64,000 nt of DNA from Clostridium sp. CAG:452. GTDB taxonomy: Bacteria > Spirochaetota > Spirochaetia > Sphaerochaetales > Sphaerochaetaceae. The position numbers and the translations under genes were made by a program. Shown here piece after piece: positions 43,022 through 59,436 of the stretch (positions are counted from its first letter, which is position 1; each line of letters opens with the position of its first letter). The notes under the pieces were generated by a model that had not been told where the DNA came from, ran no database searches, and was given only the letters and a program-made list of their open reading frames with translations. The stretch lies in the NCBI GenBank assembly GCA_963626675.1, contig CAVFXW010000001.1, positions 8,232-72,231 on the forward strand. Direction: 5' to 3'.

Positions 43022-44743
43022 GTGGATTCACGTTTTCAATACAATGCATACAGATACTTTCTCCTCTGGGGTATATTCTCTTCTCTTGTTCTGACTCTTT
43101 CATGCTTTGTAGACGCTACACTTGTGGGAAGGCTAACAGGGAGCGACGGCCTTGCAGCATATAATCTTATAACTCCTGTATTTCTCTTATATGCGCTACT
43201 AGGCGTTACGATAGGAGTCGGCGCGAATGTCAGGGTGGTTAAACTTATCGGAGAAGACAAGAAAGAAGAGGCTGATGAAGTATTTCACAGTGCCCTTACA
43301 CTCGGTTTAATCGTATCGACTCTACTGCTTTTCCCCTTACTCTTTAAAAGAAAGTATGCATCATTTCTTGGCTTGACTGGTAGTTTGTATCCTCTCTCCG
43401 TAGGGTATCTTAGTACGGCGCTTCTAGCTTCTCCTGCATTTGTAATGTATCACATACTATCGGCCTCTGTACGCTCGGATGGCAATCCCCGTCTATGCTT
43501 CTGGAGTTCTCTTGTTGTGTGTTTAACGAACATTACACTCGATATCGTATTCATGAAGGTAATGAAAATGGGTATAAAAGGAGCCGCGATAGCGTTGTGT
43601 ATAGGAGAGACTCTTGGCGTTTTTACACTTCTCTCGCATTTTTTCAGAAAAAGAGGTCTCCTCACTCTTTCGTTAAAGCTACCTCATTTTACCTTTATCA
43701 GAACGCTTTTCTTGAATGGATGCAGCGTCGGCTCTGCATATATCTTCTCTGCACTTGTAATGCTGTTTTTTAATACGATGCTTCTTTCATACGGAGGTAC
43801 AAATGGTGCTCTCTATGTTGCTATATATGGCATAATATATACAATGAACACGACTGTGGCTGCTGTTTATGACGGTAATGGAATGGCAATGCAGAGTGTC
43901 ATTTCGTTTCTTACGGGGGAGGCGGACAGCGAGGGAATTATTGCTGTATTGAAAAGAGCTATTATCACAATGATTGTATTAAGTGTTGTGATGGTCATTC
44001 TTTTTTCTTCTTTTTCGTCTTGCTTAATCGCCCTCTTTGGCATTACGGGAAACGATGATGTATATGCGTCTTCTCGCGCATTGAGGATCTTTCTCATAAG
44101 TGCGATCTTTACTTCTCTGAATACTACACTTACTTCATTCTGGCTCAGTATAGGGAGAACGAGACTCGCATCTCTTATGTCCCTTATTAGAAACTGCCTC
44201 CTTATTCTTCTATTTGGCTTTATTCTTGTTCCTGGGTATCTTGTTGACGGACTCGGATTAACATATATAGCATCAGAGGCGTCATCTCTCTTAATTGCTC
44301 TTATTGTTCTTTGGAAAAGTCCATCGAGAGAATATATGAAGAAGAAGTTCGGTACTATAGAGAGTTCGTTTGAAAAGACTTATCTAATAAAGAAGGAGAG
44401 TATGGGTGATATTTCTTCGGACATTGAAAGGATAAGTAGAGACTGGGATATAGACTATAAGAGATCATTTATGATCAATTTTATATTGGAAGAAATACTT
44501 CTCAACATTATTAAGTTTGCATTGTCGGAAAATAGCAAAAAAGAATACTACATCTCGATAAAGATTATAGCAAAAGATGAGGATTTATGTCTCCGTATAC
44601 GCGATAACGTCAAAGAGTACAATCCCTTCGATTGTGGCGGCGATGAGATTGACAGTGGTGTCTTAAAATTAATAAAGAAGAAGACGAAGTATTTGGAGTA
44701 TCAGAGAAAGATGATCTTCAATTACTTCTACACGATAATTTGA
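43022..44743 (+). CDS. MATE-family transporter fused to a C-terminal RsbW/SpoIIAB-like HATPase domain (degenerate ATP lid)
   Basis: The first ~440 aa are a 12-TM MATE (VDATLVGRLTGSDGLAAYNLITP...). The last ~130 aa carry N-box-like LEEILLNIIKFA, then IRDNVKEYNPFD (G1 without Gly) and IDSGVLKLIKK (weak G2). GTG start after GAGGAGG. Confidence 0.75.
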   Translation: MDSRFQYNAYRYFLLWGIFSSLVLTLSCFVDATLVGRLTGSDGLAAYNLITPVFLLYALLGVTIGVGANVRVVKLIGEDKKEEADEVFHSALTLGLIVSTLLLFPLLFKRKYASFLGLTGSLYPLSVGYLSTALLASPAFVMYHILSASVRSDGNPRLCFWSSLVVCLTNITLDIVFMKVMKMGIKGAAIALCIGETLGVFTLLSHFFRKRGLLTLSLKLPHFTFIRTLFLNGCSVGSAYIFSALVMLFFNTMLLSYGGTNGALYVAIYGIIYTMNTTVAAVYDGNGMAMQSVISFLTGEADSEGIIAVLKRAIITMIVLSVVMVILFSSFSSCLIALFGITGNDDVYASSRALRIFLISAIFTSLNTTLTSFWLSIGRTRLASLMSLIRNCLLILLFGFILVPGYLVDGLGLTYIASEASSLLIALIVLWKSPSREYMKKKFGTIESSFEKTYLIKKESMGDISSDIERISRDWDIDYKRSFMINFILEEILLNIIKFALSENSKKEYYISIKIIAKDEDLCLRIRDNVKEYNPFDCGGDEIDSGVLKLIKKKTKYLEYQRKMIFNYFYTII

Positions 44744-44750
44744 GGTCGAG

Positions 44751-46169
44751 ATGGAAAATCTGTTCATTTTTCAGAACAATGATGAGATAGAAAGGCTTTC
44801 TGTACAGAACAAGCTTCTCTTTCCATATGAAAAGAAGGTTATGGACAAACTTTTCTTAGGGAGGAGCAATCTCTCCGTATTGGATATAGGTGCTAATGAC
44901 GGCAGTAAAACGTCCTCTCTTTTTTCAGATAGCAGAGTAGGAAGAGTCATTGCACTTGAATACAATGCACTTCTTGTGGAGAAAGCCGAGAGACAGAAAA
45001 AGGATGACCGTTTTTCCTTCTATACAGTAGATGTGGAGAAGGCTGATTATAAGAGCTTATTGAAGAGAGTGATGAAAGAGTCTTCTCTAAAAGGTTTTGA
45101 TATCATATACATATCATTTGTTCTAATGCATCTTAAGGAAAGCGAAGCGCTTCTCATCTCTCTTAAGGAATTTCTCAATTGTGGAGGAACTATCGTTATT
45201 ACGGAAGCTGATGACCTCTCGTCGCATCTTACTCCCGATGAAAATGGACTTCTTGAGACATTTCTTTCGATTCTCGATAAGGACAAGTATTCTGGTAACC
45301 GACGTCTCGGACACGATATTGAAAATATTGTGAAAAGTGCGGGATATGGGGATATAACTATCCACTGTGATGGCGTTTCGGCTTTTCCTGGGGAGGAGGA
45401 GAAGAAAAAAGATATCTATAAAACATTCTTTTCATATCTACCGGAGGATGTTGATATTCTTTTGAGTGAAGATGAAAAAAACAGTGAATACAGAGAATGG
45501 AAGAAGTGGATAGATTCGAATTATTTGTCACTCAAAGAGCTTATAGAGAGTCCTTCGTCCTCAATTTCCATGGGGATGAAGATACTTACTTGTCGTAAGA
45601 CGATTTTCCATTCTGTTCCTCTTGAGGAAAGTGAAATAAACTCAACTCTTCTTCTTATGGATGAATGTGTCGGTAAGAACCTTTACAATAAAGATGATCT
45701 ATCTAAGGCAATTAAATCTTGCGATGAGTTCTTTATGCTTTATAAGACTGAAGAGGGTGTCATAGGCGGATACATATATTACTTTCTTACCGATAAGGAG
45801 ATGCTCTCTTCTTCAGGTAAAATACCACGTAAGCAGTTAGACAGTGTCTATAAAGGCAATAAGTGCGCACGTATTCAATCCGTTGGAGTGAGAAAAGAGT
45901 ATAGTGGGTTTGGTCTTGGAACGAGGATGATCAAAGAGGCTCTTCTTGACAACAAAATGCGTGGTGTGGAGGCTGTATATTGTGTATGCTGGGCGCCAAA
46001 TGGAGAGGTTCCGCTTGCTTTCCCTCTCTATCAATCGGGATTTTCCCATCTCATGAAAATCAGAGACTACTGGGCTGAAGAAGAGAGCCTTGTCTGCCCG
46101 TATTGCTCTGGTCGCTGTCACTGCAACGCTGAAGTTTATTATAAAATATTGAAGGAGGAGTGTAGATGA
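44751..46169 (+). CDS. Class I SAM methyltransferase - GNAT acetyltransferase fusion with C-terminal CxxCx3CxC cluster
   Basis: MTase motif I VLDIGANDGSKTS and post-I VIALEYN. GNAT motif A IQSVGVRKEYSGFGLGTRMIKEAL. The tail is LVCPYCSGRCHCNAEVY. Confidence 0.7.
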   Translation: MENLFIFQNNDEIERLSVQNKLLFPYEKKVMDKLFLGRSNLSVLDIGANDGSKTSSLFSDSRVGRVIALEYNALLVEKAERQKKDDRFSFYTVDVEKADYKSLLKRVMKESSLKGFDIIYISFVLMHLKESEALLISLKEFLNCGGTIVITEADDLSSHLTPDENGLLETFLSILDKDKYSGNRRLGHDIENIVKSAGYGDITIHCDGVSAFPGEEEKKKDIYKTFFSYLPEDVDILLSEDEKNSEYREWKKWIDSNYLSLKELIESPSSSISMGMKILTCRKTIFHSVPLEESEINSTLLLMDECVGKNLYNKDDLSKAIKSCDEFFMLYKTEEGVIGGYIYYFLTDKEMLSSSGKIPRKQLDSVYKGNKCARIQSVGVRKEYSGFGLGTRMIKEALLDNKMRGVEAVYCVCWAPNGEVPLAFPLYQSGFSHLMKIRDYWAEEESLVCPYCSGRCHCNAEVYYKILKEECR

Positions 46170-48187
46170 AACTCAAGCTCTTACCCAAATTCATAATTTC
46201 ACTATGTGTTGTAGGTCTCGTTTTTATAGTGAGTGTCTCTCTTTTCGGTTATCTTACATCTAAAAGATATCTTGAGGAACTTTATGCAGAGCGTGTAATG
46301 ACGAACAGTAATACGATTGCTTCTCTTCTCGATAAAGAGGCTGTAAAGACTATCATTAGTGAAGGCGGGGAGAATACACAAGAGTACAAGACTATGTACA
46401 ATCTTTTCCAAGCCCTTAAAAAGGATGGTGATATTACATATCTATCTCTTGTTGTTCCCGGCAAGGACAGTGTTACATTTTACATAGATGCATTCGTTCC
46501 CGAGATGGGAGATAAAGAATCGGCTTTTCTTCCTTATGGGGCTGAGATTTTCTATAGAGATGCTGCCAATCCAGATGATCCTAACGACCTCGAGAAATAC
46601 TATGAGATATGGAATGCATATAAATTAAATAAAGGTCTCGATAAGCCACTTGTGACGGACAATAAGTATGGTTATAACTACACCGGCATTTCCGTTGTGC
46701 TCGATGAAAATGGAAAGGCCATTGCTGAGGTTCAATATATTCTGGACATGAGCGAGGTGAGATCATACCTCTTCTCATTCCTCAATAACATGATTTTGAT
46801 CTCATTTATAATAAGCGCCGTAACAATGGCTGCATACATTTTCTTTGTAAGAAAGATGGTAACTTTCCCTATTGGAAAGCTGACGAGTTTTACAGAGGAA
46901 ATAACAAAGACGAAAGATTTCGAGAATCAGAAAATAGAGATTAATACGGGGGATGAAATAGAGGCGCTCTCTTCTTCGTTTAATTTCATGCTTTTAGAGC
47001 TTGAAGAATATATAAAGAACCTTTCGATAGTTACACGAGAGAAGGAGAGGATAGGAACGGAACTTGATGTTGCACGTCATATACAGAGGAGCATGCTTCC
47101 GCACGCGATCCCTACATTACCTTGCCTCAATAAAATCGATATATATGCCACAATGACGAGTGCAAAGGAGGTCGGCGGCGACTTCTATGACTATTTTCTC
47201 ATCGATGATGATCACCTTGCCCTAGTTATGGCCGATGTTTCGGGTAAAGGAGTACCGGCTGCTCTCTTTATGGCGATAAGTAAGAGTCTTATTAAATCTG
47301 CTCTACAGAGCACCTTAAGTCCAAAAGAGGTATTAGAGAAGGTTAATAACCAGCTTTGTGAGAACAATGATGCAGGGATGTTTGTTACTGTATGGCTCGG
47401 TATACTCGATATAAAAAGTGGCGTTATGAAATGTGCCAACGCAGGACACGAGTTCCCCGTAGTTAAGCGCAATAACGGAAAATGGGAGCTCTATAAGGAT
47501 AAACACGGCTTTGTTCTTGCGGGCATGGAGGCATCGAAATACGTAGAGTATGAACTTAAATTCGATAAAGGCGATAAGCTCTTTGTCTATACCGACGGTG
47601 TTCCCGAGGCAACTGATGGTAACCTCGTCCTCTACGGGACAAAGAGAATGATAGACGCTCTCGATAGAACAGAGGGCCTATCTAGTCGTGAGAGCCTTGA
47701 GTATATTCAGAGTGACGTAAACAATTTTGTTGGCCATGTGGATCAATTTGATGATATAACAATGATGATGCTTGAGATAAAAGATTGTCCTCTTATAAAG
47801 GAGATTACCGTTACTCCGACACCAAAGTGTGTAGAGAGTGTCACATCATTTATTGAGGATATCCTATCTGATAGCGGGGCGCCATTTAAGACGATAGCAC
47901 AGGTGAATGTTGCAATAGACGAAATATTATCGAATATAATCTCTTACAGCGGGGCTGAAAAAGTGACTGTCAAATGTGCTTCTTCTCTCAGTGAGATAAA
48001 GATTGAGTTTTCAGATGATGGTAAACCATATGATCCGACTTCTTCTCCCGATCCTGATACCTCACTATCGGTGGAAGAGAGGAAGCTTGGAGGATTGGGT
48101 ATATTAATGGTTAAAAAGATAATGGACGATATAACATACATGTATAAGGAAAATAAGAACATCCTATCAATCAAGAAGGGCTGGTAA
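46166..48187 (+). CDS. Sensor PP2C (SpoIIE-type) phosphatase: TM - extracytoplasmic Cache-like domain - TM - HAMP - PP2C - C-terminal RsbW-like kinase domain
   Basis: Two TM segments flank about 170 aa. HAMP-like PIGKLTSFTEEI...IEALSSSFNFMLLEL. PP2C motifs EVGGDFYDY, LVMADVSGKGVPAALFM, YTDGVPEA and FDDITMMMLE. The kinase part has DEILSNII (N box), FSDDGKPYDP (G1) and GGLGILMVKK (G2). Confidence 0.85.
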   Translation: MKLKLLPKFIISLCVVGLVFIVSVSLFGYLTSKRYLEELYAERVMTNSNTIASLLDKEAVKTIISEGGENTQEYKTMYNLFQALKKDGDITYLSLVVPGKDSVTFYIDAFVPEMGDKESAFLPYGAEIFYRDAANPDDPNDLEKYYEIWNAYKLNKGLDKPLVTDNKYGYNYTGISVVLDENGKAIAEVQYILDMSEVRSYLFSFLNNMILISFIISAVTMAAYIFFVRKMVTFPIGKLTSFTEEITKTKDFENQKIEINTGDEIEALSSSFNFMLLELEEYIKNLSIVTREKERIGTELDVARHIQRSMLPHAIPTLPCLNKIDIYATMTSAKEVGGDFYDYFLIDDDHLALVMADVSGKGVPAALFMAISKSLIKSALQSTLSPKEVLEKVNNQLCENNDAGMFVTVWLGILDIKSGVMKCANAGHEFPVVKRNNGKWELYKDKHGFVLAGMEASKYVEYELKFDKGDKLFVYTDGVPEATDGNLVLYGTKRMIDALDRTEGLSSRESLEYIQSDVNNFVGHVDQFDDITMMMLEIKDCPLIKEITVTPTPKCVESVTSFIEDILSDSGAPFKTIAQVNVAIDEILSNIISYSGAEKVTVKCASSLSEIKIEFSDDGKPYDPTSSPDPDTSLSVEERKLGGLGILMVKKIMDDITYMYKENKNILSIKKGW

Positions 48188-48190
48188 AAG

Positions 48191-48661
48191 ATGAATGAAA
48201 ATCTGTTTCGTAAATCAAGTGTTGACAGGGTAAATTCCCCCGAAGAGCTCAATGACTACATCCGTGTCGCTTCTCCAAGCGTATGGCTTATTCTTTCTGC
48301 TATAGTTGCATTCCTCGTTGGAGTTGTAATCTGGGGAATATGGGGAAATATAGAGGTGACAGTAAAGGCCCCTGTAGTAGTAAAGGATGGTGTAGTGACT
48401 TGCTACGTAGATGATGTTTCATCTCTTGAGGAGGCCCTGGACGTTCGTATTGACGGAAAAATTGGCAGTATAAAGAGTATAAAGCGAACGCCGGTTGAGA
48501 TCACAGATGACTATGACCCGTATTTTCTTTATATCTCATCGTACTCGTCGGGATCATTTGCCTATCCAGTCACCGTTGAAATAAGTGGGCTTGAAGACGG
48601 AGTATACAGCTCGGAGATTGTGAAAGAGAGAATCAATCCAATCTACTTTATCATCCATTAG
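48191..48661 (+). CDS. Miniature HlyD-type (NHLM bacteriocin-system secretion protein-like) membrane-anchored protein
   Basis: LFRKSSVDRVNSPEELNDYIRVASPSVWLILSAIVAFLVGVVIWGIWGNIEV matches the characteristic N-terminus of NHLM/NHLP-system HlyD proteins. Only 156 aa. It starts 3 nt after the PP2C stop, and the next gene follows 9 nt later. Confidence 0.6.
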   Translation: MNENLFRKSSVDRVNSPEELNDYIRVASPSVWLILSAIVAFLVGVVIWGIWGNIEVTVKAPVVVKDGVVTCYVDDVSSLEEALDVRIDGKIGSIKSIKRTPVEITDDYDPYFLYISSYSSGSFAYPVTVEISGLEDGVYSSEIVKERINPIYFIIH

Positions 48662-48670
48662 GGGGAGATT

Positions 48671-50854
48671 ATGGAAAAGAAGAAGAGGTCTGCTCCTCCT
48701 ATAAAGGGTGGCGTTGCCAAAGTTCCTGTAGTTATACAGTTGGAGGCATTGGAATGTGGAGCTGCCGCTCTTACGATGATTCTTGAGTATTACGGTAAGT
48801 GGATTCCTCTTGAGAAGGTTCGTGCAGACTGTGGTGTCTCTAGAGACGGTTCGAATGCAAAGAATATTCTCAAGGCGGCACGCTCCTATGGCTTAAAAGC
48901 GAAAGGCTATAGATATGAGCCGGAAAAGCTAAAGGAGGATGGCGTCTTTCCGTGTATAATACACTGGAACTTTAATCATTTCGTGGTTTTATGTGGTTTT
49001 AAGGGAAATAAGGCCGTTATAAATGATCCTGCAAAGGGAACATACTCTGTTTCGTTTGAGACATTCGATAAATCATTTACCGGAATATGTCTCATGATGG
49101 AGCCTGGAGAGGATTTTGTCCCTGAGGGAAAAAAGAAGAGTGTAGCTTCATTTATAAAGAAAAAACTCAAGGGTACTGGTAGTTCATTCTCTCTCGTTGT
49201 CATTACGACTTTCATCTCATTTCTTATCGGCATCATAACGCCCGGATTTTCGAATGTCTTTGCAGATTATCTCCTCTCTGGAAAGAATATGGAATGGTTC
49301 ATGCCTTTCATGTACGGTATAACTGCAATATCGATCATACAGATAATAGTTGGGATAATACAGTCGGTGTATACTCTCAAGGTTAACGGAAAGATAGCGA
49401 TAGTCGCAAACAGCGAGTACATGTGGCATGTTCTGCGTCTTCCTATGGAGTTTTTCTCTGTTCGTATGGCCGGGGATATACAGGCGCGTCGGAGCCAGAA
49501 CGAGTCGATCGCTGGGACTATAATTAATACTTTTGCCCCTCTTTCAATTGAGGCTTTCATGCTTTTCTTCTACCTATTTGTAATGCTGAGGTATAGTATA
49601 GTATTGTCGTTTGTTGGGATTCTTTCGGTATTTTTAAATATGGCGGTGAGCTCATATATATCGAAAAAGAGAGTCAATTCCACTCGTGTTGCAAGTAGAG
49701 ATAACGGCAAGTTATATGGTGCGACGGTTGCGGGAATCGAGATGATAGAGTCGATTAAGTCCACTGGAGGAGAGAACGGTTTCTTCGAGAAGTGGTCGGG
49801 TTATCAGGCGAGTGTAAACTCCGGACAGGTGAAATGCACACGTCTTAATGCACTCTTTGGTCTCATACCTTCTCTAATAAGCATGCTTACCAATAATATA
49901 GTCCTATTGGGGGGTGTCTATCTCTGTCAGAATGGCGCATGGACAGTCGGTATGATAAGTGCGTTCTCCGGCTTTCTTTCCTCCTTTCTCTCTCCAGCAA
50001 TGCTCTTTGTCTCGGCATCGCAATCTCTTTTGGAGATGCGTACGAGTATGGAGAGGATTGAGGATGTTATGGAATATAAGACCGATATCCCGTACGCACT
50101 AGAAGGTGTAAAGGACGATGTAGAATACGATAAACTCAGCGGCAAAATAGAGCTTAGGAATGTTACATTCGGCTACTCACGTCTTGGAGAACCTCTTATT
50201 AAAGATTTCTCTATGACGCTTGAGAGAGGTCAGACTGTGGCCTTTGTTGGGCCATCTGGCTCGGGAAAATCGACATTGGGTAAGTTGATATCTGGGCTAT
50301 ATAAACCTTGGAGTGGAGAGATTCTCTTCGATGGAAAGCCTATAAGTGAAATAAACCATTCGGTATTCACCGGCTCAGTTAGCGTTGTGGATCAAGATAT
50401 TACGCTCTTTGAGGATACAATCGCCAATAATATAAAGATGTGGGACGACTCGATAGAGGACTTTGAAATGATACTTGCTGCAAGGGACGCCCAGATCCAC
50501 AGCGATATAATGCTTAGAGATGGAGGATACTCATATAAACTAATGGAGGGAGGAAAGGATCTATCGGGCGGACAGAGACAGAGGCTTGAGATAGCACGAG
50601 TACTAGCAGAAGATCCAACAATTATCATCATGGATGAGGCAACAAGTGCCTTAGATGCAAAGACGGAGTATTGTGTTGTCTCGTCAATTAGAAATAGAGG
50701 TATAACGACCATTGTTATCGCTCATAGACTCAGCACAATCAGGGATGCTGATGAAATCATCGTTCTCGACAACGGATTAGTTGTGGAGAGGGGAACTCAT
50801 GATGCTCTCTATAAGAAGGGCGGAGTTTATACTTCGCTCGTTTCCAACGAGTAA
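48671..50854 (+). CDS. Bacteriocin-processing ABC exporter with N-terminal C39 cysteine peptidase domain (NHLM ABC1-like)
   Basis: C39 catalytic residues in QLEALECGAAAL (Cys29), WNFNHFVVL (His) and INDPAKG (Asp). Six TM helices. Walker [10 protein letters not shown], signature LSGGQRQR, Walker B IIIMDEATSALD. Confidence 0.9.
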   Translation: MEKKKRSAPPIKGGVAKVPVVIQLEALECGAAALTMILEYYGKWIPLEKVRADCGVSRDGSNAKNILKAARSYGLKAKGYRYEPEKLKEDGVFPCIIHWNFNHFVVLCGFKGNKAVINDPAKGTYSVSFETFDKSFTGICLMMEPGEDFVPEGKKKSVASFIKKKLKGTGSSFSLVVITTFISFLIGIITPGFSNVFADYLLSGKNMEWFMPFMYGITAISIIQIIVGIIQSVYTLKVNGKIAIVANSEYMWHVLRLPMEFFSVRMAGDIQARRSQNESIAGTIINTFAPLSIEAFMLFFYLFVMLRYSIVLSFVGILSVFLNMAVSSYISKKRVNSTRVASRDNGKLYGATVAGIEMIESIKSTGGENGFFEKWSGYQASVNSGQVKCTRLNALFGLIPSLISMLTNNIVLLGGVYLCQNGAWTVGMISAFSGFLSSFLSPAMLFVSASQSLLEMRTSMERIEDVMEYKTDIPYALEGVKDDVEYDKLSGKIELRNVTFGYSRLGEPLIKDFSMTLERGQTVAFVGPSGSGKSTLGKLISGLYKPWSGEILFDGKPISEINHSVFTGSVSVVDQDITLFEDTIANNIKMWDDSIEDFEMILAARDAQIHSDIMLRDGGYSYKLMEGGKDLSGGQRQRLEIARVLAEDPTIIIMDEATSALDAKTEYCVVSSIRNRGITTIVIAHRLSTIRDADEIIVLDNGLVVERGTHDALYKKGGVYTSLVSNE

Positions 50855-50865
50855 GGAAGGATACT

Positions 50866-53049
50866 ATGGGTTGGTTTGATGAACAGATAAGAGAACGTAT
50901 ACAAAAAGATGATGATAACTTCGCAGATGCATTTGCTTCTCTTGCTTCTCTTGTTATGGGAAAGCGTATAACAAGGGCCTTGAATGAGGCTAAGTTTCAG
51001 ACGAAGTCCGCAATCGAGGAAATATTGAAATATTACCATATAAAGGCAGTTGAACTTCCCGATTGTGTGAAGGATGTAAACGATCAGCTTGAGTATTTAT
51101 TGCGTCCGAGCGGCATTATGAGACGGACGGTGAGCCTCAGCGACGGGTGGTATAAAGACGCTATAGGCGCGATGCTGGGCTCTCTTAAATCTGACGGCAC
51201 TCCTATTGCGCTTCTTCCCCATGGAACAAATGGATATAGGTATTTCGACAGCAGAAAAAAGAAGTGGGTGCGTGTTAATAAGGAAAGCGCCAAGGAGATA
51301 GATAGTGAAGCTATATGCTTTTACAAACCTTTTCCAATGAAAAAACTCGGCGTCAAGGATCTCCTCTTATACATAGTGGGATTGATGAATATTTCAGATT
51401 ATGTGGCTTTGTGTCTCATAACACTTGCTGTTTCCTTAGTCGGTCTTTTTACTCCGAAAATCCAAAGGCTTATTTACGGACCTGTGATAGAAGGCGGTAG
51501 CGCTGAGCTTCTATTTGCCGTATTCGGCTTCCTCATTTCAATCAGTGTTTCTCAGCTTCTTATCTCTTCTACGCGCTCTCTTATCATGGGAAGGCTATCG
51601 ACTAAAATGAATACAAGTGTGCAAGCAGCTGGGATGATAAGGTTACTCTCCCTTCCTGCGCAGTTCTTTAAGGACTACTCTGCCGGAGAGCTCTCGTCTC
51701 GTATGAATGCACTCAACTCTTTGTGCTCAGTGCTTGTAAGTACGATTTTTACGACAGGGCTCTCAAGTCTCTTTTCACTTATTTATATAACCCAGATGGT
51801 CCAATACGGGCCGCATTTGGTCATTCCGGGACTAATTGTCATTCTTGTAACTGTAATTTTCTCGCTTATTACTACGTTGGTTCAACTTAGGGTGAGTGAA
51901 AAGCAGCTTCTCCTCTCTGCTTCGGAGTCTGGGCTTGAGTATTCACTAATTACGGGAGTGCAGAAGATAAAACTCAGCGGGGCAGAGAAGAGAGCTTTTG
52001 CTAAATGGGCCGAGGCTTACACGGCAGAAGCGAGAGAGGAGTATGATCCACCGTTTTTCTTAAAGCTTAGCGGAGTATTTTCATCATGCATATCACTTGT
52101 AGGAACGATTGTAATATATTTCTTTACCATAAAGACTAATGTAAGTCTTGCGGATTATTATGCATTTAACAGTGCTTATGGCGCGGTGATGGGGGCATTT
52201 ACATCCCTTGTATCATTGTCAACAACGGCTGCAAGAATCAGACCACTGTTAAATATGGTGAAGCCTATAATCGAGACTGTACCTGAGACAGCACAGTCAA
52301 AAAGGGTGGTTACAAGACTTTCTGGTGCGATAGAACTTAACAATGTCTCTTTCCGTTACACCCCCGATGGGCCACTTATTCTTGACGATCTTTCACTTAA
52401 GATAAGGCCGGGACAGTATACTGCGATAGTAGGTGCAACAGGATGTGGTAAGTCGACTCTTATGCGTCTCATGCTTGGCTTTGAGACTCCGCAGAAGGGT
52501 GCCATCTACTACGATGGGATGGATCTTGCTTCTCTTGATCTCAAGTCATTAAGACGGAAAATCGGATCTGTAATGCAGAATGGGAAGCTCTTTCAAGGCG
52601 ATATCTACTCAAACATAGTAATAACAGCTCCATCTCTCGGCCTGGAGGAGGCATGGATAGCTGCAGAGAAAGCAGGGATTAAGGAAGATATAGAGAGAAT
52701 GCCGATGGGGATGCATACAATCATCAGCGAAGGAACGGGAGGTATTTCCGGTGGACAAAGACAGAGGATTATGATAGCCCGTGCAATAGCACCCAAGCCG
52801 AGGATTCTCATGTTTGATGAAGCGACAAGTGCACTCGACAATATTACACAGAAGATAGTTTCTGATTCACTTTCAAAGCTCAAGTGTACACGCATTGTAA
52901 TTGCACACCGTCTCTCAACAATAAAGGAATGTGACAGAATTATAGTATTGGACAAAGGTAAAATAGTTGAAGATGGAAAATATGATGAGCTGATTGCTAA
53001 AAATGGATATTTTGCATCTCTTGTTTCAAGACAGCGACTTGACGGATAA
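50866..53049 (+). CDS. Second ABC exporter with non-catalytic N-terminal peptidase-like domain (NHLM ABC2-like)
   Basis: N-terminal ~160 aa lack a catalytic Cys. PIALLPHGTNGYRYFD...EAICFYKPFP pattern as in NHLM-system ATP-binding proteins. Walker A GATGCGKST, ISGGQRQR, ILMFDEATSALD. Confidence 0.85.
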   Translation: MGWFDEQIRERIQKDDDNFADAFASLASLVMGKRITRALNEAKFQTKSAIEEILKYYHIKAVELPDCVKDVNDQLEYLLRPSGIMRRTVSLSDGWYKDAIGAMLGSLKSDGTPIALLPHGTNGYRYFDSRKKKWVRVNKESAKEIDSEAICFYKPFPMKKLGVKDLLLYIVGLMNISDYVALCLITLAVSLVGLFTPKIQRLIYGPVIEGGSAELLFAVFGFLISISVSQLLISSTRSLIMGRLSTKMNTSVQAAGMIRLLSLPAQFFKDYSAGELSSRMNALNSLCSVLVSTIFTTGLSSLFSLIYITQMVQYGPHLVIPGLIVILVTVIFSLITTLVQLRVSEKQLLLSASESGLEYSLITGVQKIKLSGAEKRAFAKWAEAYTAEAREEYDPPFFLKLSGVFSSCISLVGTIVIYFFTIKTNVSLADYYAFNSAYGAVMGAFTSLVSLSTTAARIRPLLNMVKPIIETVPETAQSKRVVTRLSGAIELNNVSFRYTPDGPLILDDLSLKIRPGQYTAIVGATGCGKSTLMRLMLGFETPQKGAIYYDGMDLASLDLKSLRRKIGSVMQNGKLFQGDIYSNIVITAPSLGLEEAWIAAEKAGIKEDIERMPMGMHTIISEGTGGISGGQRQRIMIARAIAPKPRILMFDEATSALDNITQKIVSDSLSKLKCTRIVIAHRLSTIKECDRIIVLDKGKIVEDGKYDELIAKNGYFASLVSRQRLDG

Positions 53050-53101
53050 TTCTCTTACAATACGGGAAATTATGCGTAATAATAATTAAAAGGATGAAAG
53101 A

Positions 53102-53533
53102 ATGAATAATTTAGAAAATGATTTTATTGAAAAAGTAAAGAATGCGAGAAGTGTTGATGATATCATAAATATTGCACACGAGAATGGAATTGAAATTAGA
53201 AGAGAGCAGGCACAGTTCTATTTTAACAATATGAAACAAGGCGAACTAACAGATGATGAGATATCATCTGTCTCAGGAGGCGGTTGTAGTAGCAGTAGAA
53301 GTTCCGTATCCTCATCAAAGAGCGATTTACGCCTCGGTACAGTCGTCACTCTTAAAAACAACGGACATACGTTCTCCTCTTCTGCTGCTTCGACAATTTG
53401 TAGTAACCCGAATTGTGGAAGCAACACGTTTTATATTTTGAGAAAAATAAGCGGCACTGATTATTATCTAATGGAATGTACCAAATGTAAGTGGACCTAT
53501 AATGCTTTAAGAGACAATATAACTGCTATTTAA
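53102..53533 (+). CDS. RiPP/bacteriocin precursor with Nif11-type leader and double-glycine cleavage motif; 83-aa Ser-rich, Cys-containing core
   Basis: The leader is MNNLENDFIEKVKNARSVDDIINIAHENGIEIRREQ...GELTDDEISSVSGG (Nif11 pattern F.EKVK....S.....IA.E.G.EI, then ELTDDE..SVSGG). The core has Cys at residues 62, 100, 105, 126 and 129. It sits between the exporter and an rSAM/SPASM gene. Confidence 0.8.
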   Translation: MNNLENDFIEKVKNARSVDDIINIAHENGIEIRREQAQFYFNNMKQGELTDDEISSVSGGGCSSSRSSVSSSKSDLRLGTVVTLKNNGHTFSSSAASTICSNPNCGSNTFYILRKISGTDYYLMECTKCKWTYNALRDNITAI

Positions 53534-53578
53534 TAGGGTTATCCTCTTTTCAAGAGCCACTCTTGCCGAGAAAGAATA

Positions 53579-54991
53579 ATGTATTACGTAATTAATCCGA
53601 ATATAGGAATAAGGAGTTGGTGGCGCTCTCCGTACTCTTATTACATGAAAGGTGTGAGGAATGCGTTTAGACTTACTCAAGAAGAATTTGAATTCCTTTA
53701 TAAGTGTGATGGTATTACAAATCTTGAGGAAGGAAGCCTTTCGAATAGAATGCTCAATCGAGCCATGATTATACCTTGTAAGAAGGGAGAAATGTCTCTC
53801 TCCTCATGGCAGAGAAAGATCTGTGACAATCGATATTTTCCTGCCATGAATTGGATGATTACCGGTAAATGCAACTACAATTGTCTTCATTGTTTCAATG
53901 CGTCAGATAATGCGCCTCTCATGAGTGAGTTCACGCTTAAAGAAGCAGAGCGCCTGATGGATGAAGCCGAGGAATGTGGAATCAACGCCTTTACAATAAC
54001 AGGTGGTGAGCCCATGTGTCATAAATCTTTCTTTGATATAATCGAGGGGATATATAAGAGAGGAATGTTCGTCGAAGAGCTTAATACGAATGGCTATTAT
54101 ATAACCCAGGATGCTCTCGATTCATTCAAAGCTATAGGATGCCATCCTCTCATAAAGATATCGTTTGATGGAGTTGCCCACCATGATTGGCTGAGAAACC
54201 GCCCTGGCGCAGAGGAGGATGCCCTCAGGGCAATAAAACTATCTGTTGAAAACGGCTTTCGGGTCAAAGTTCAGAGTAATGTTCATCGCAATAATGTCGA
54301 AAGTATGATTACCTCTGCACACCTTCTTAACAAAATTGGTGTCAGCGAGATGCGCCTTATTCGCACAACGGAAGCACCACGCTGGATAAAGAACGGAGGA
54401 TCAAATACACTCACCCTTTCTGAGTATTTCGACAGAATGCTCTCTTTTATAGAAGAATATTCAGCCTCGAGAGACAAAATGGAGATCGACATATGGCAGC
54501 TCTTACATCTTTACCCAGAAAGTAAATCCTATAGGCCACGTGCCGTAGAGTGCATCGAGGAAGAGTATAGGGACTCTCTTCCTGTGTGTCGCGGAAACAG
54601 GGGTATGGTCGCTGTGGCTGCTAACGGGAACTTATTTCCATGCCTTCAGATGTCAGGATACTACGAAACGCACAATTGGAAACTGGGCAATGTGAAAGAG
54701 AACGGCCTCAAGAGATATCTTCAGCATGGAGATTACCTTGAAGAAGTATGTACTACGGTAAAGGATCTCAAGGACAGTAATGAAAAATGCCGCCGGTGCG
54801 AATGGTTTAAGTATTGCGTCGGAGGCTGCAGGGCTCTAGCTCTTCTATTCAGTGGCGACAAAAAGGGTAGCGATATATCAAAATGTCTTTTCTTTAAAGG
54901 CGGTTATATGGAGAAGCTCAAGAATGTAATGAAAGACTGGCGTGATGTAAGCGGAGTTATGAAAAGTAGAGAAAATGTGAACATTACTTGA
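53579..54991 (+). CDS. Radical SAM / SPASM-domain peptide maturase with N-terminal RRE-like extension
   Basis: CNYNCLHC (Cys98/102/105) rSAM cluster and TITGGEP. SPASM motif CRGNRGMVAVAANGNLFPC (GX4C) ... CRRCEWFKYCVGGC (CX2CX5CX3C) plus a trailing Cys. The first ~90 aa carry RLTQEEFEFLYKCDGITNLEE, which is PqqD/RRE-like. Confidence 0.9.
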   Translation: MYYVINPNIGIRSWWRSPYSYYMKGVRNAFRLTQEEFEFLYKCDGITNLEEGSLSNRMLNRAMIIPCKKGEMSLSSWQRKICDNRYFPAMNWMITGKCNYNCLHCFNASDNAPLMSEFTLKEAERLMDEAEECGINAFTITGGEPMCHKSFFDIIEGIYKRGMFVEELNTNGYYITQDALDSFKAIGCHPLIKISFDGVAHHDWLRNRPGAEEDALRAIKLSVENGFRVKVQSNVHRNNVESMITSAHLLNKIGVSEMRLIRTTEAPRWIKNGGSNTLTLSEYFDRMLSFIEEYSASRDKMEIDIWQLLHLYPESKSYRPRAVECIEEEYRDSLPVCRGNRGMVAVAANGNLFPCLQMSGYYETHNWKLGNVKENGLKRYLQHGDYLEEVCTTVKDLKDSNEKCRRCEWFKYCVGGCRALALLFSGDKKGSDISKCLFFKGGYMEKLKNVMKDWRDVSGVMKSRENVNIT

Positions 54992-55054: not shown

Positions 55055-56476
55055 ATGAAAAAGAAATTGCTAATTACCATTTTATTGGCAATAGCTGTGC
55101 TTATTACAATCAACGCAGCAACTGTCGATGAAATACTTGAGAGCGCGAAGAAGACAAGTCCGTCATATCAAAATATTTTATTGAACTATCAAAACGGGCT
55201 TCTTACAGTCGCTGAACTTGGAAAAGATGATGAAATCGGGGTTGCACTTTCTGTGACGGTTGACCCGTTGAGCGAGGTCTACTCTGGCGGTAGCACTACA
55301 CCATCTTCACTTACTGATACAAGTAGTAAAGGGCTTACAGCCACGCCTACAGCCCAAATAACGTTTCCTAATGATGGGAATACTACAATCAGTGGAGGCG
55401 CGAGGATTTCAACAAGATATGAAGATGGCTCTACTTCAATAAGTGGCGAGGTCGGGGTTTCTCATACTTTTGATTTTTCAGGATATTCTAGTAAGCATTC
55501 TGAGGATTTGAAATATGCCTCTACAAAATACAGTACGGAGCTTACATACAGTAAAGCAGAGCTCTCGTTTGAGACGAGTGTCCTTAAAATGATTTCATCG
55601 ATTCTTAGCGCTGAAAGTTCAATTAAGAGGGCTCAATTCAATCTTAAAAAACAGCAGACAGCATTCGATAAACTTACTGCTTTAAAAACATATTCAGAAG
55701 ATTCGAGTGTTTATAAGAGCACTCTCAATACACTCAATGCTCTTGAGAGTTCACTCTCTTCGACAGAGGAGCAATATAATAGCCTTCTTTCAAGATACAA
55801 GACTCTTACCGGCCTAGCATGGGAGGGCGTTGATGTGGGAGAGCCTCCCGTACTTACGCTGACAACATACGAGAATGGTAATACAGAAGTTATGATAGAA
55901 TCTTTGAATGCCGAAAGCAGTGAAGAATCTTATAAGAGTACGCTTGCTTCTTCAAAGCCCTCAAAGCTTGTAACTTCGTTATCTCTTTCGGCATCAAGTA
56001 GCAAGTATGATATTTCGGGTTCTTTGCAATATGCCGGTAACAATTGGAGTATTACTGCAAAGCCTGGGGTAAGTATATCTAGTGACGGCGATACAACACC
56101 GAGCCTTACATTAGCGGGAAGCTGGAAGAATAATGAAGGCTCTATCACATCTGGCTCTGCACTTAGTAGTGCTTTGAACAATGCCAAAGTAGCAGCCAAT
56201 AATTACCTTGAGGCACTTTCAACATATGAGGAGAATGCAACGAATTATGCTCTCGAGATTGTAGAATGGAATACCAAACTCTCTCAAGCTAAAGCCGATT
56301 TGGAGTATAAAGAGACTCTTCTCGAGAGTGCCCAGGCTCTTTATGACTTGGGTTTGAATACATCGGAGGAACTCGAGAGTGCCGAGCTCGAGTACACTCT
56401 AAGTAAGACCGACTATGATAAGGTGATAATCGAAGGATTATCTCTAGAACGTGATTTAGCAATATTTGCACTATAA
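55055..56476 (+). CDS. TolC-like outer-membrane efflux protein (divergent, Ser/Thr-rich inserts)
   Basis: Signal MKKKLLITILLAIAVLITINA. OEP-like start TVDEILESAKKTSPSYQNILLNYQNG. Two helical repeats, the second ending LESAQALYDLGLNTSEELESAELEY. Precedes an adaptor/ABC set. Confidence 0.6.
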   Translation: MKKKLLITILLAIAVLITINAATVDEILESAKKTSPSYQNILLNYQNGLLTVAELGKDDEIGVALSVTVDPLSEVYSGGSTTPSSLTDTSSKGLTATPTAQITFPNDGNTTISGGARISTRYEDGSTSISGEVGVSHTFDFSGYSSKHSEDLKYASTKYSTELTYSKAELSFETSVLKMISSILSAESSIKRAQFNLKKQQTAFDKLTALKTYSEDSSVYKSTLNTLNALESSLSSTEEQYNSLLSRYKTLTGLAWEGVDVGEPPVLTLTTYENGNTEVMIESLNAESSEESYKSTLASSKPSKLVTSLSLSASSSKYDISGSLQYAGNNWSITAKPGVSISSDGDTTPSLTLAGSWKNNEGSITSGSALSSALNNAKVAANNYLEALSTYEENATNYALEIVEWNTKLSQAKADLEYKETLLESAQALYDLGLNTSEELESAELEYTLSKTDYDKVIIEGLSLERDLAIFAL

Positions 56477-56493
56477 GGAACAGAAAATAGATT

Positions 56494-57588
56494 ATGGATA
56501 AGAAAGAAGAAATATTGACAGAAAGTGAAAGACAAGAGAAGAAATTGAGGGAAGCTCAAAAAGCAAGAAAGAGAAGAAAAAGAGTAAAGACATTCCTAGG
56601 GTGGATTATTGTTATATTCATTGTAGCGCTTGTTCTCGTTTGGTTCTTAAAAATGAAGAAGGACAGTGAGGCTCAAATTGCTGCTCTTCAGAATGCATCG
56701 AATGAGATTGAATATACTGTGACAAGAACGAATTACGTAAAGTCTATAGATGTTTCCGGTAATGTCGTAGCATATGACAAACAGGAAGCGAACTTCCGCT
56801 CCGCAGGTGCTGTAACGGGTGTGTTTGTAAAAGTCGGGGACAAGGTCGAGAAGGGACAGATTCTTGCGACTATAGACTCAACCGAGCAGCAATATAATCT
56901 CAAGCAGATCGAAAATCAGATTGCAGAGGCCAAAATTACAGGTTCTTTACAGACTCTCGAGTCTTTGGAGCTAAAGAAAAGTAATGCAGAAGAGCAGCTA
57001 TCATATACAACACTTACAGCGAACTTTGATGGAATTGTATCGAAGGTAAGTATAAGTGAGAATGACTATGTTACGGCTGGAACTGCAGTCATTACGGTTA
57101 TTGATGTTTCGAAACTCAAGACTACTGTCGAAATCGATGAAATCGATATGCAATACATAGAAGAGAATCAGACAGCGACACTCTCGTTTGATTCTCTTCC
57201 TGGTGAGAGCGTTGTTGCATATGTTTCATACATCCCGATGGAAGGAAGATATACAACACAGGGAATTGGTGTTGTTGATGTAGAGATGACAATAGAAAAT
57301 CCTCCGTCAGGACTCAGAACTGGATTTACATTCACCGGTTCGATTGATCTAGAACAGGATGTGAATATTCTTCTTATTCCGTCTTCATCTGTCTCCTCCG
57401 AGCGTGGCGGAAGAACTTTTGTTACTGTAAAGAAGGCGGACGGCCAGAGTGAGAGAAGAAGTGTGACGGTTTCGTATCTAGGAGAAGGATACAGCGAAGT
57501 ACTCTCAGGCCTCAGTGAGGGAGAAGTCATTGTTTATTCTCAGTCATCCGGTGGTGGCATGGGCTTCATGATGAGAGGAGGATTTTAA
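56494..57588 (+). CDS. Efflux periplasmic adaptor (HlyD/MacA family)
   Basis: N-terminal TM. Lipoyl-like GAVTGVFVKVGDKVEKGQILATID, a coiled coil, then LTANFDGIVSKV and beta-barrel/MPD parts. Confidence 0.8.
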   Translation: MDKKEEILTESERQEKKLREAQKARKRRKRVKTFLGWIIVIFIVALVLVWFLKMKKDSEAQIAALQNASNEIEYTVTRTNYVKSIDVSGNVVAYDKQEANFRSAGAVTGVFVKVGDKVEKGQILATIDSTEQQYNLKQIENQIAEAKITGSLQTLESLELKKSNAEEQLSYTTLTANFDGIVSKVSISENDYVTAGTAVITVIDVSKLKTTVEIDEIDMQYIEENQTATLSFDSLPGESVVAYVSYIPMEGRYTTQGIGVVDVEMTIENPPSGLRTGFTFTGSIDLEQDVNILLIPSSSVSSERGGRTFVTVKKADGQSERRSVTVSYLGEGYSEVLSGLSEGEVIVYSQSSGGGMGFMMRGGF

Positions 57589-58283
57589 TGGCGTCTAGTG
57601 TTATAGAGCTTCAGAATGTCAGGCGCTATTACCTCGTGGGTGAATACGTTGTCAAAGCTCTTGATGATGTATCGCTTACCATAGATAGAGGCTCATTTAC
57701 CGCAATAATGGGACCTAGCGGAAGTGGTAAGTCTACTCTTATGAACCTTATCGGTTGTCTTGATACTCCAACAAGCGGGTATATTACAATCGGTGGTGAG
57801 CTTACAAACGGAATGGACGAGTCTGAGCTTGCATTTTTGAGAAATCAGAAGATAGGCTTTGTCTTCCAACAGTTTAATTTGCTTGGAAAACTCAATGCTC
57901 TGGAGAATGTTATGACACCGATGCTCTATTGTCTTGTCCCTCACAAGGAGAGAAAGGAGAGAGCTGAGGCAATGCTGGAAAAGGTAGGGCTCAAAGATAG
58001 AATGAAACATCTTCCGAGCGAGCTATCGGGTGGGCAGAAGCAGAGAGTTGCTATTGCACGCGCTCTTGTCAACGATCCCGATATTCTCCTAGCCGATGAG
58101 CCTACTGGAGCTCTTGATAGTAGAACGGGCCATGAGGTTATGGGGCTTTTTCAGGAATTGAATGAAGAAGGACGTACAATCGTCTTTGTTACACATGATA
58201 GAAAATTGGGAATGCAATGTGCAGAACAGGTTTTCATTAAAGATGGAAGGATAGTAGAGGAAGATGTTACTCGAGAACTTTAA
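57588..58283 (+). CDS. MacB/LolD-type ABC transporter ATP-binding protein
   Basis: [47 protein letters not shown] and VTHD motifs. 1-nt overlap (TAATG) with the adaptor gene. Confidence 0.9.
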
Positions 58284-59436
58284 ACTAGCAATTAAGAGTA
58301 TGGTAACAAGTAAGATGAGAACATTTCTTTCTCTTCTTGGTATTGTGATAGGAGTCGGTTCGGTTGTAGCTATTATGACGCTCGGTGAGAGTGTGAAGGG
58401 CTCGATCAATGATGAGATGAACCTCTCGGGTATGGACCTTGTTACTCTCAGTAACACGGGATCAAATACAATTTTTGATGAAGAACTAGGCTATACAATC
58501 AAGGAAAAGATACTCGGAATAGATGATGTTGCGATCCAGACTGTTGGAAATGCAACGATTAGACATGCCCAGGAATCGGCAAGCGCAACTGTATATGGTG
58601 TATCCTCAACCTTTGGTGATATACAGCAGCTGGAAATAATGGACGGTTCTTTCTTCTCGAAGGAAGACAATATGGAGAAGGCTCAGGTTGTAGTGCTTGG
58701 TTATGATGTTGCAATGGATCTCTTCCCCGGAGGAGATGCTCTCGGAAGTTATGTATCAATCTTCAGAACTCAAGCGAAGACATATAAGGTAATTGCTGTA
58801 CTCGAAGACACTTCAGAATCGACTATGTCTGATACAAACAGCAATGTTTATATACCTTACCACACATACAGCCAGAATATTAGGAAGATAAACAGTGTCC
58901 CGAGGTACTACTTTAAAATCAATGAAGACTATTCTGCAACCGATGTATCATCATCGATAAAATCCTATATGCAGAATATAGCATCATCGAATGAGTATGT
59001 GGTCTCCACTGCGCAGGAGTTTGTCGATATGGCAAACTCGATTATGGAGACGCTTACGACATTCCTATCCGCAATTGCCGCTATCTCATTGATCGTCGGT
59101 GGAATAGGGATTATGAATATAATGCTTGTCACGGTTGTCGAGAGAACAAGAGAGATTGGTGTGAGAAAGGCTCTCGGCGCGACCCCGAAGACCATAAGGC
59201 ATCAATTCCTTGTTGAGGCACTTGTTTTATCGGTATGTGGCGGTATATTTGGAATAATATTTGGGATTATTGTAAGTTATGTTGTTGCGACTGCGCTTTC
59301 ATATAGCCTCAAGTTATCGCTGTTGTCTATTGCGCTTTCTATTGGATTCTCATCGGCTGTCGGTATATTCTTCGGCTGGTATCCTGCAGCTAAGGCATCG
59401 TCGCTTGATCCTATTCAGGCACTATCATATGAGTAA
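58264..59436 (+). CDS. MacB-type ABC permease (MacB periplasmic domain + FtsX 4-TM)
   Basis: LAIKSMVTSKMRTFLSLLGIVIGVGSVV start, a large periplasmic loop, C-terminal FtsX part ERTREIGVRKALGA...WYPAAKASSLDPIQALSYE. Confidence 0.85.
   Translation: MLLENFKLAIKSMVTSKMRTFLSLLGIVIGVGSVVAIMTLGESVKGSINDEMNLSGMDLVTLSNTGSNTIFDEELGYTIKEKILGIDDVAIQTVGNATIRHAQESASATVYGVSSTFGDIQQLEIMDGSFFSKEDNMEKAQVVVLGYDVAMDLFPGGDALGSYVSIFRTQAKTYKVIAVLEDTSESTMSDTNSNVYIPYHTYSQNIRKINSVPRYYFKINEDYSATDVSSSIKSYMQNIASSNEYVVSTAQEFVDMANSIMETLTTFLSAIAAISLIVGGIGIMNIMLVTVVERTREIGVRKALGATPKTIRHQFLVEALVLSVCGGIFGIIFGIIVSYVVATALSYSLKLSLLSIALSIGFSSAVGIFFGWYPAAKASSLDPIQALSYE

Follow-up and report, generated by a model that had tools for sequence, protein, structure and literature searches.

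A candidate maturation and export cassette for small cysteine-bearing proteins, built from a Nif11-type leader, a radical SAM/SPASM enzyme and a two-ABC export set

What could be made, modified and exported by five consecutive genes in which a small leader-bearing protein is encoded between two ABC exporter genes and a radical S-adenosylmethionine (SAM) enzyme gene? Here we address this question for a locus of Clostridium sp. CAG:452 located in a stretch of 64,000 nucleotides of contig CAVFXW010000001.1, which we call the window and in whose numbering positions are given. The five genes lie on the + strand and encode, in this order, a short HlyD-like membrane accessory protein of 156 aa (48191-48661), a peptidase-containing exporter, ABC1 (48671-50854), a second exporter subunit, ABC2 (50866-53049), a 143-aa precursor (53102-53533), and a radical SAM/SPASM enzyme of 470 aa (53579-54991). 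A first-pass annotation had proposed these genes, with their coordinates and motifs, all of which were confirmed, and its interpretation as a Nif11-leader/radical SAM/exporter locus is supported by the data described below. The explanation that we favour, with a probability of about 0.68, is that of a cassette which matures a small cysteine-bearing protein in a leader-dependent manner and exports it, and in which the leader would guide a cysteine-directed cross-linking before cleavage and export take place.

The precursor is the natural starting point. Its leader (residues 1-60; 53102-53281) matches the Nif11 leader model TIGR03798 with 24.9 bits (E 1.7e-5), which is below the curated cut-off of 32.3, while two of the ten sibling precursors tested from related loci exceed it (36.8 and 35.5 bits). 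The Nif11-type leader initially proposed is thus a sound prediction at the level of the family, of which the window precursor is a divergent member; no Pfam model matches this protein. The leader ends in ELTDDEISSVSGG, followed by Gly-Cys (i.e., SGG, then GC), and it displays the hydrophobic residues of a double-glycine cleavage motif, namely V at -4, I at -7 and L at -12. In the AlphaFold2 (AF2) model it folds as a Nif11-like three-helix bundle followed by a recognition helix, ELTDDEISSV, and the GG site; the helices span residues 3-13, 18-27, 34-45 and 51-56, and the block-mean predicted local distance difference test (pLDDT) reaches 93-95 in residues 11-40, with lower values towards the two termini of the leader.

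The core (residues 61-143; 53282-53533 including the stop codon) has 83 residues and consists of Gly61-Cys62, a Ser-rich disordered linker that extends to around residue 78, and finally a small beta domain. Residues 57-78, which hold the double glycine, Cys62 and the Ser-rich run, are modelled as disordered, with pLDDT under 50 for residues 64-71, and the beta domain (80-143) is confident, with pLDDT above 90 for 101-143. Besides Cys62, the core carries C100, C105, C126 and C129, and in its 83 residues there is no XYG motif, as had been pointed out, nor any Tyr-Gly pair. Foldseek retrieved for this domain only weak, non-significant SH3/Tudor-like matches (E ≥ 0.02). On this model, the window core is more aptly called a tethered mini-protein than a peptide.

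The core had also been presented as not recognisable as any characterised family of peptides that are made by the ribosome and modified after translation (RiPPs). This holds as regards family models, as no curated NCBIfam or Pfam model claims the core and none claims the enzyme as an equivalog, but relatives of the core do exist. A word-indexed search with the window precursor retrieved only itself, while an exhaustive HMMER search gave 959 representative clusters, mostly matched through the leader and a few over the full length. The core homologues P0122-P0126 are 35-45% identical over their full length and all of them bear the leader. Among the best 150 of the 959 hits every alignment begins within query residues 1-12 and no leaderless core homologue was seen, though core-only matches beyond these 150 cannot be excluded. 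Altogether, the 959 leader relatives and the handful of true core homologues rule out an orphan precursor.

How would such a protein leave the cell? ABC1 combines a C39 peptidase domain, a transmembrane domain and an ATPase. It reaches 887 bits against TIGR03796, the model of the peptidase/permease/ATPase subunit (cut-off 853), and its peptidase domain matches Peptidase_C39 at E 1e-35 over profile positions 2-132 of 133, in agreement with the intact C39 exporter fusion annotated earlier. This domain is nearly identical to a demonstrated double-glycine cleaver, LahT150 (PDB 6mpz), which it matches at E 3.3e-70 with identical LECGAA, NHFVV and INDPAKG motifs. LahT150 cleaves Nif11-type leaders after the double glycine in varied substrates in vitro, and LahT recognition resides in approximately the last 13 leader residues (Bobeica et al., eLife 2019; PMC6363468). 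The predicted role of ABC1 is to sever the leader behind Gly59-Gly60 and carry the core out of the cell. ABC2, composed of a 178-aa N-terminal domain, a permease and an ATPase, scores 747 bits against TIGR03797, the model of the peptidase-less subunit (cut-off 709). Its N-terminal domain had been noted as lacking the catalytic cysteine, which is true but uninformative: neither phmmer against the PDB nor hhalign with the ABC1 domain detected significant C39 similarity in these 178 residues, and a degenerate C39-like domain gained no support.

The HlyD-like protein does begin in the way expected of NHLM-type secretion proteins, since its residues 13-64 align with positions 1-52 of the NHLM HlyD model TIGR03794 (E 2e-10). 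However, it is not a full-length HlyD protein: it gathers 40 bits versus a cut-off of 156 and measures 156 aa versus a 421-position profile, and it is predicted to have one transmembrane segment, an extracytoplasmic domain of about 100 aa and no coiled-coil hairpin. Because a form of 133-197 aa is kept at the same position in 29 related loci, this short protein is a family trait rather than a truncation, and a pseudogene is ruled out.

The enzyme carries the radical SAM motif CxxxCxxC (C98-x3-C102-x2-C105) and a SPASM motif formed by C337-x12-G-x4-C355, C404-x2-C407-x5-C413-x3-C417 and C436. Both Radical_SAM (PF04055, 70.5 bits) and SPASM (PF13186, 29.1 bits) are above the Pfam cut-offs, and the radical SAM triad as well as the seven SPASM cysteines are invariant in 37 homologues, as would correspond to the complete SPASM domain first described. 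None of the NCBIfam equivalog models is reached, the best one being AhbD (113 bits versus 500). The curated sactisynthase and ranthisynthase models do not include the enzyme (ScmE 110 bits versus 400, StsB 93 versus 625, PapB 61 versus 340), nor does the model of the anaerobic sulfatase-maturating enzymes (anSME; TIGR03942, 63 versus 349).

The AF2 model of the enzyme (pLDDT 86.5) comprises an N-terminal domain, a radical SAM barrel and a SPASM region, and its best PDB matches by Foldseek are RiPP maturases and their relatives (PqqE, SkfB, anSME, CteB, SuiB). Alignments are longest, at about 480-490 columns, with two enzymes that contain a RiPP recognition element (RRE), SuiB (5v1t, TMq 0.62) and CteB (5why). 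Residues 2-67 fold as three strands, two helices and one strand, with a block-mean pLDDT of 85-96. An RRE had been annotated in this enzyme, and the predicted fold, though no sequence model, speaks in its favour; we therefore refer to an N-terminal RRE-like domain, from residue 1 to about 80, as a provisional assignment derived from that fold. A defence-system or viperin reading of the enzyme was considered and rejected: the PADLOC pVip models match only the generic radical SAM core (residues 90-263, 65-68 bits), and viperins have no counterpart of its SPASM and N-terminal domains.

Far from being an isolated oddity, the locus belongs to a widespread family. More than 120 clusters of enzyme homologues exist at 62-76% identity, and a scan of one genome per species found enzyme relatives in 351 species-level genomes. 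The 80 best loci were retrieved and their neighbourhoods surveyed by calling open reading frames and applying hidden Markov models; 29 of them have the full 10 kb of upstream flank. Related loci are designated here by L-numbers. Nearly all come from metagenome-assembled genomes of gut Clostridia (Oscillospiraceae, Lachnospiraceae and others), together with a few spirochaetes and a single cultured isolate, Sporofaciens musculi WCA-9-b2, whose locus lies at roughly 3,984,760-4,006,130 of NZ_WUQX01000001.1 and whose core has 37 residues, GCGPNRCKFCGGDLNAVENHTYPPNLICPYCGQWGDL. The same gene order recurs, i.e., short HlyD-like gene, ABC1, ABC2, one to 11 small genes and the enzyme gene. Leader-bearing genes adjoin the enzyme in nearly all of the loci with enough flank, as expected of an enzyme paired with such precursors; in the full-flank set the leader model finds them in 27 of 29, the remaining two (L062 and L064) having LysM genes with a short GG leader, and 23 of the 29 have the export set alongside. 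Furthermore, the enzyme is still paired with leader-bearing genes in L029, L041, L049, L060, L070 and L072, six loci whose upstream 10 kb contain no exporter. The tight conservation of the enzyme (58-76% identity across the family) had first suggested a housekeeping role, which these gene neighbourhoods rule out.

The machinery is conserved while the cargo is not. Median identities to the window proteins are 64% for the enzyme, 68% for ABC1, 62% for ABC2, and 40% for both the short HlyD-like protein and the leaders, whereas the cores are mostly unalignable to the window core (median local alignment of 18 residues). Some loci encode two radical SAM enzymes. In these, the one that belongs to the family (more than 640 bits to that of the window) follows GG-GC precursors of the zinc-ribbon type, and a second, divergent radical SAM (190-236 bits) adjoins precursors of another leader subtype with CxC-GGGG repeat cores. 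Each paralogous enzyme thus sits beside its own leader subtype and core class, which argues for enzyme-precursor specificity.

Some observations on these loci may be recorded here. The divergent radical SAM loci are L039 (11397-13654), L071 (12146-14462), L076 (11642-13037), L077 (12146-14532) and L017 (29-2469); their precursors have leaders of the subtype ...EEDFQPADAQGELADDELDAVAGG and cores made of three CxC-x-GGGG-like repeats, they share the export set, and together with their enzyme they appear to form an uncharacterised RiPP class of their own. Among the relatives of the window cassette, the closest (L001/L006, on CAVHPV010000005.1) has 11 tandem precursor genes versus one in the window (L001 2257-7993), with an AAA_14/DUF4143 ATPase gene inserted on the opposite strand after the first of them. 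L006-L011 and L053, whose enzymes are 72-76% identical to that of the window, bear names from four phyla (Faecalibacterium, Phocaeicola, Eggerthellaceae, Muribaculaceae, Ruminococcus); these "cleanbin" organism labels look unreliable, and several of the loci share flanking genes with the window.

If the cores cannot be aligned, what do they have in common? From the related loci we parsed 212 precursors, whose cores have a median length of 70 residues. The 190 cores of at least 30 residues, clustered at a BLAST E of 1e-5, fall into at least 54 unrelated core families. Leaders end in (V/I)(S/A/T)GG, the double glycine terminating 197 of the 212. Over the same 212 precursors, cysteine makes up 9.4% of core residues and 0.6% of leader residues, and its position is far from random: the first cysteine lies no more than four residues from the GG in 182 precursors and exactly at +2 in 121. 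Counted by family, 46 of the 54 have it no further than four residues from the GG (expected 32%, p 2e-15), and 33 have it at +2 (expected 9%, p 8e-21). As far as the sequences tell, this N-proximal cysteine is the one feature common to unrelated cores. Its fixed spacing from the leader in otherwise unrelated cores singles out Cys62 (codon 53285-53287, position +2 after the GG) as the candidate site of radical SAM modification. The cysteine placed two residues after the double glycine, which the first-pass annotation had not singled out, is the most informative feature of the core.

Beyond the N-proximal cysteine, the commonest number of further cysteines is four, and the minimal pattern would therefore consist of that cysteine plus two CxxC-type pairs; two or more CxxC motifs occur in 107 of the 212 cores. 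The pattern is found both in the window (C62 plus C100, C105, C126 and C129) and in the S. musculi core. Some cores (L002 6778-7164, L063) have the N-proximal cysteine alone, followed by a Gly/Ser linker and a cysteine-free SH3-like domain, and others in the family read as zinc-ribbon-like or SH3-like.

These elements can be assembled into a pathway. The 143-aa precursor would be made in the cytoplasm, where its Nif11-like helical leader would dock on the N-terminal RRE-like domain of the enzyme, and this docking would place the disordered post-leader segment with Cys62 in the active site. There, we infer, a 5'-deoxyadenosyl radical and auxiliary Fe-S clusters would modify the core in a cysteine-dependent manner, the likeliest product being a thioether cross-link of the sactionine or ranthionine type through the N-proximal cysteine, possibly involving other cysteines too. 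The C39 domain of ABC1 would then cut after Gly59-Gly60, and ABC1, ABC2 and the short HlyD-like protein would export the 83-residue product. The pathway is consistent with the position of Cys62 in a disordered linker directly behind the leader in the AF2 precursor model, with the architecture of N-terminal, radical SAM and SPASM domains that the enzyme model shares with SuiB, CteB, SkfB and PqqE, and with the contrast between conserved machinery and variable cores. A local sactionine formed by a single cysteine has a precedent in the enteropeptins. As related loci hold tandem arrays of hypervariable cargo, a role in interbacterial competition or in cell-surface interaction is likely.

Several data weigh against this pathway. 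As many as 30 of the 212 precursors (14%) have no N-proximal cysteine, and four have no cysteine at all; P0137 and the product of L053 7336-7716, which form a close branch of the window core family, lack both Cys62 and the linker. The four distal cysteines of the window core look zinc-ribbon-like and, as such, would bind a metal rather than donate cross-links. As for the enzyme, its chemistry cannot be read from the sequence, which stands at roughly the same distance from those of sactisynthases, ranthisynthases, anSME, PqqE and heme-pathway enzymes, and its residues 1-95 find no match in Pfam or the PDB even at E 10, which leaves the RRE undetected at this level. Finally, L062 (8863-9603) and L064 (9091-9576) encode, between ABC2 and the enzyme, small proteins with a double-glycine leader of about 19 aa followed by a LysM domain (PF01476, above cut-off). 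Two of the three in L062 are cysteine-free, and therefore some cargo is probably exported unmodified; the exporter seems to carry cell-wall-binding mini-domains too.

The same data can be accommodated in other ways. The enzyme could form several thioether bridges, from C100/C105 and C126/C129 across the two hairpins, with Cys62 as one more donor and the seeming zinc ribbon being in fact a group of cross-link donors, which would yield a double-hairpin product reminiscent of ruminococcin C, a peptide from gut Clostridia with two cysteine pairs. That most cores with an N-proximal cysteine contain at least four others, four being the commonest count, would fit such an arrangement, as would the frequency of repeated CxxC motifs and an enzyme fold that matches sactisynthases (CteB, SkfB) as well as anything else. 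Nevertheless, we regard it as unlikely, given that the N-proximal cysteine can stand alone before a cysteine-free SH3-like domain, that AF2 gives the beta domain of the window as a confident, independently folded unit, and that the StsB and PapB maturase models stay far below their cut-offs. The only thing that unrelated cores share is one cysteine at a constant spacing behind the leader, in many cases ahead of a Gly/Ser linker and a folded domain, and this could instead mean that the residue is converted into something other than a cross-link, e.g., an anSME-type formylglycine or another reactive group, providing exported mini-domains with an N-terminal chemical handle. The variable residues around the cysteine fit a chemistry on the cysteine itself better than a cross-link to a specific partner, and Foldseek places structures of anSME high in its ranking (E 1e-12). 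However, anSME-type enzymes have no leader-binding domain, and the enzyme is far from their model. The window core reads C-S-S-S-R after the GG, but the C/S-x-P/A-x-R motif is not conserved in homologous cores, nor is C-x-P/A-x-R conserved across cores in general. To our knowledge, formylglycine-type cysteine chemistry has no precedent in leader-dependent systems, and a conversion of this kind appears quite improbable.

It could be asked, in turn, whether the small proteins are modified at all. They might be unmodified double-glycine cargo, bacteriocin-like or cell-wall-binding, with the enzyme acting elsewhere or on a minority of them. The cysteine-free LysM cargo of L062 and L064 would be in line with this, and so would the 14% of precursors devoid of an N-proximal cysteine. 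Moreover, the same type of exporter serves lanthipeptides in the Lah cluster, and the export set is therefore a portable module across RiPP classes. What makes us hold unmodified cargo as the least probable of these alternatives, with few chances in its favour, is the enzyme itself, which adjoins leader-bearing genes in essentially every locus, the six with no exporter within 10 kb upstream included, and whose paralogues match distinct leader and core classes. In addition, a structured leader of 60 residues exceeds what a C39 protease needs, if LahT is taken as reference (PMC6363468).

A more speculative idea, which we consider doubtful and mention as a tentative possibility, is that the enzyme, rather than tailoring a single peptide scaffold, sets one modification on dozens of unrelated, self-folding mini-domains, at a cysteine "handle" whose spacing from the leader is fixed. 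The succession of handle, flexible linker and folded domain recalls lipoproteins and, by analogy, suggests that the modified cysteine could attach, cross-link or react, either at the cell surface or with a target. If true, the cassette would represent a protein-level pathway of radical-SAM-dependent tagging and secretion, rather than a classical peptide natural-product pathway.

The cross-linking cassette that we favour shares features with systems already described. The Lah cluster of Lachnospiraceae bacterium C6A11 is a lanthipeptide operon with LahA cores of approximately 2.3-2.7 kDa (Bobeica et al., eLife 2019; PMC6363468). Like the window family, it belongs to gut Clostridia and combines several precursors that have Nif11-type double-glycine leaders and diverse cores with a TIGR03796-type exporter, whose C39 domain is the one that ABC1 matches so closely; unlike it, the chemistry is that of lanthipeptides instead of radical SAM, the cores are smaller than 83 residues, and no conserved +2 cysteine has been reported. 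The NHLP/Nif11 three-gene export system was tied to cyclodehydratases and LanM, in a text from which the term "radical SAM" is absent (Haft et al., 2010; PMC2887384). The window shares with it an ABC1 and an ABC2 above their cut-offs, the order HlyD-like, ABC1, ABC2, and the hypervariable precursor paralogues, and departs from it in the short form of the HlyD-like component. The prochlorosins (ProcM and about 30 ProcA) offer the same logic of one conserved enzyme acting on many hypervariable Nif11-leader cores exported by a C39 ABC protein, but with LanM lanthionine chemistry instead of radical SAM/SPASM and with short peptide cores.

On the side of the enzyme, CteB/SCIFF, SkfB, RumMc (ruminococcin C) and PapB, maturases with an RRE and a SPASM domain, have in common with it the predicted domain architecture, with full or near full-length structural matches, and sactipeptide and ranthipeptide systems also share with the window family the cysteine-rich substrates and the clostridial hosts. 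However, the similarity to their maturases stays at the superfamily level. Known sactipeptide and ranthipeptide substrates are peptides of 40-65 aa with short leaders, whereas the cores of the window family, of 60-95 aa, are predicted to fold and stand behind a structured 60-aa Nif11 leader. The spliceotides (PlpX/PlpY) and the proteusins likewise involve radical SAM enzymes acting on Nif11 or NHLP precursors. Nevertheless, spliceases require XYG motifs, which the window core does not have, and a separate RRE protein. Proteusin epimerases, for their part, are not known to be SPASM enzymes and use NHLP leaders.

Genes around the cassette may take part in its regulation or in the fate of its product. 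Directly upstream, at 46166-48187 (+ strand), lies a PP2C (SpoIIE-type) phosphatase fused to a HATPase_c_2 anti-sigma-type kinase domain (Pfam SpoIIE E 1e-44, HATPase_c_2 E 4e-18), a possible regulator of the cassette, which we propose with low confidence. Homologues of this gene adjoin the cassette in L053, L062, L064, L027, L082 and L029; in L005, the cut gene upstream of the short HlyD gene has a HATPase_c_2 domain, and STAS genes are adjacent to the cassette in L042 (4727-5059) and L047 (1256-1588). The recurrence of PP2C/SpoIIE-HATPase_c_2 and STAS genes in several unrelated loci suggests partner-switching regulation of the cassette. L064 3753-4172 is also listed among the partner-switching-type regulators found beside it.

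Further upstream, a MatE-type membrane protein with a C-terminal extension is encoded at 43022-44743 (+ strand; Pfam MatE E 1.5e-31). In L062 and L064 a homologue of this MatE-type gene lies directly upstream of the PP2C gene, and in L071 and L077 one is found in the vicinity; whether this protein is a member of the cassette is uncertain, and together with the partner-switching-type regulators it may control cassette expression. Between the MatE-type and PP2C genes, positions 44751-46169 encode a protein of 472 aa in which a SAM-dependent methyltransferase is fused to a GNAT acetyltransferase and which has CPYCSGRCHC as a C-terminal motif; a homologue of it was seen in L053 only.

On the other side of the cassette, an outer-membrane-factor-like protein, a membrane-fusion protein (MFP), a MacB ATPase and a MacB permease (55055-59436, + strand; Pfam OEP, HlyD_D23, MacB_PCD, FtsX) follow the enzyme gene. 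This OEP/MFP/MacB module occurs in the window, L006, L007 and L009 only and is absent from the syntenic L053, L010 and L011, so that it is accessory; in a diderm host it could take the product across the outer membrane, or else work as an immunity pump. That the host of the window is a diderm is suggested by such outer-membrane-type genes, along with the relatives that bear spirochaete labels (L038, L085). The G+C content of the cassette locus equals that of the flanking DNA, and 3' of the precursor gene no terminator or attenuator signal exceeds chance. No tRNA gene was found in the whole 64-kb window, nor any Rfam family at the gathering threshold, and the 624-aa open reading frame at 32718-34592 has no Pfam match at E 0.001.

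As a kind, the coupling of a C39 ABC exporter to a radical SAM/SPASM maturase that depends on a leader is known; what is new is the enzyme family itself, the mini-protein cores, and the N-proximal cysteine conserved across unrelated cores. No description of this enzyme family or of its cores was found in NCBIfam release 20 or in the full-text literature, a search which did not extend to most subscription journals, so that a prior description is possible. If our inference holds, the cassette would define a new family of radical SAM enzymes, with relatives in at least 351 species-level genomes, mostly of gut Clostridia, and acting on substrates at the border between peptide and protein. It is small and directly testable, and LahT150, the protease that its native C39 domain matches so closely, is already a standard in vitro reagent. 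The tandem arrays of hypervariable secreted cargo would then constitute a large, unexplored repertoire of factors for competition or surface interaction in the gut microbiome.

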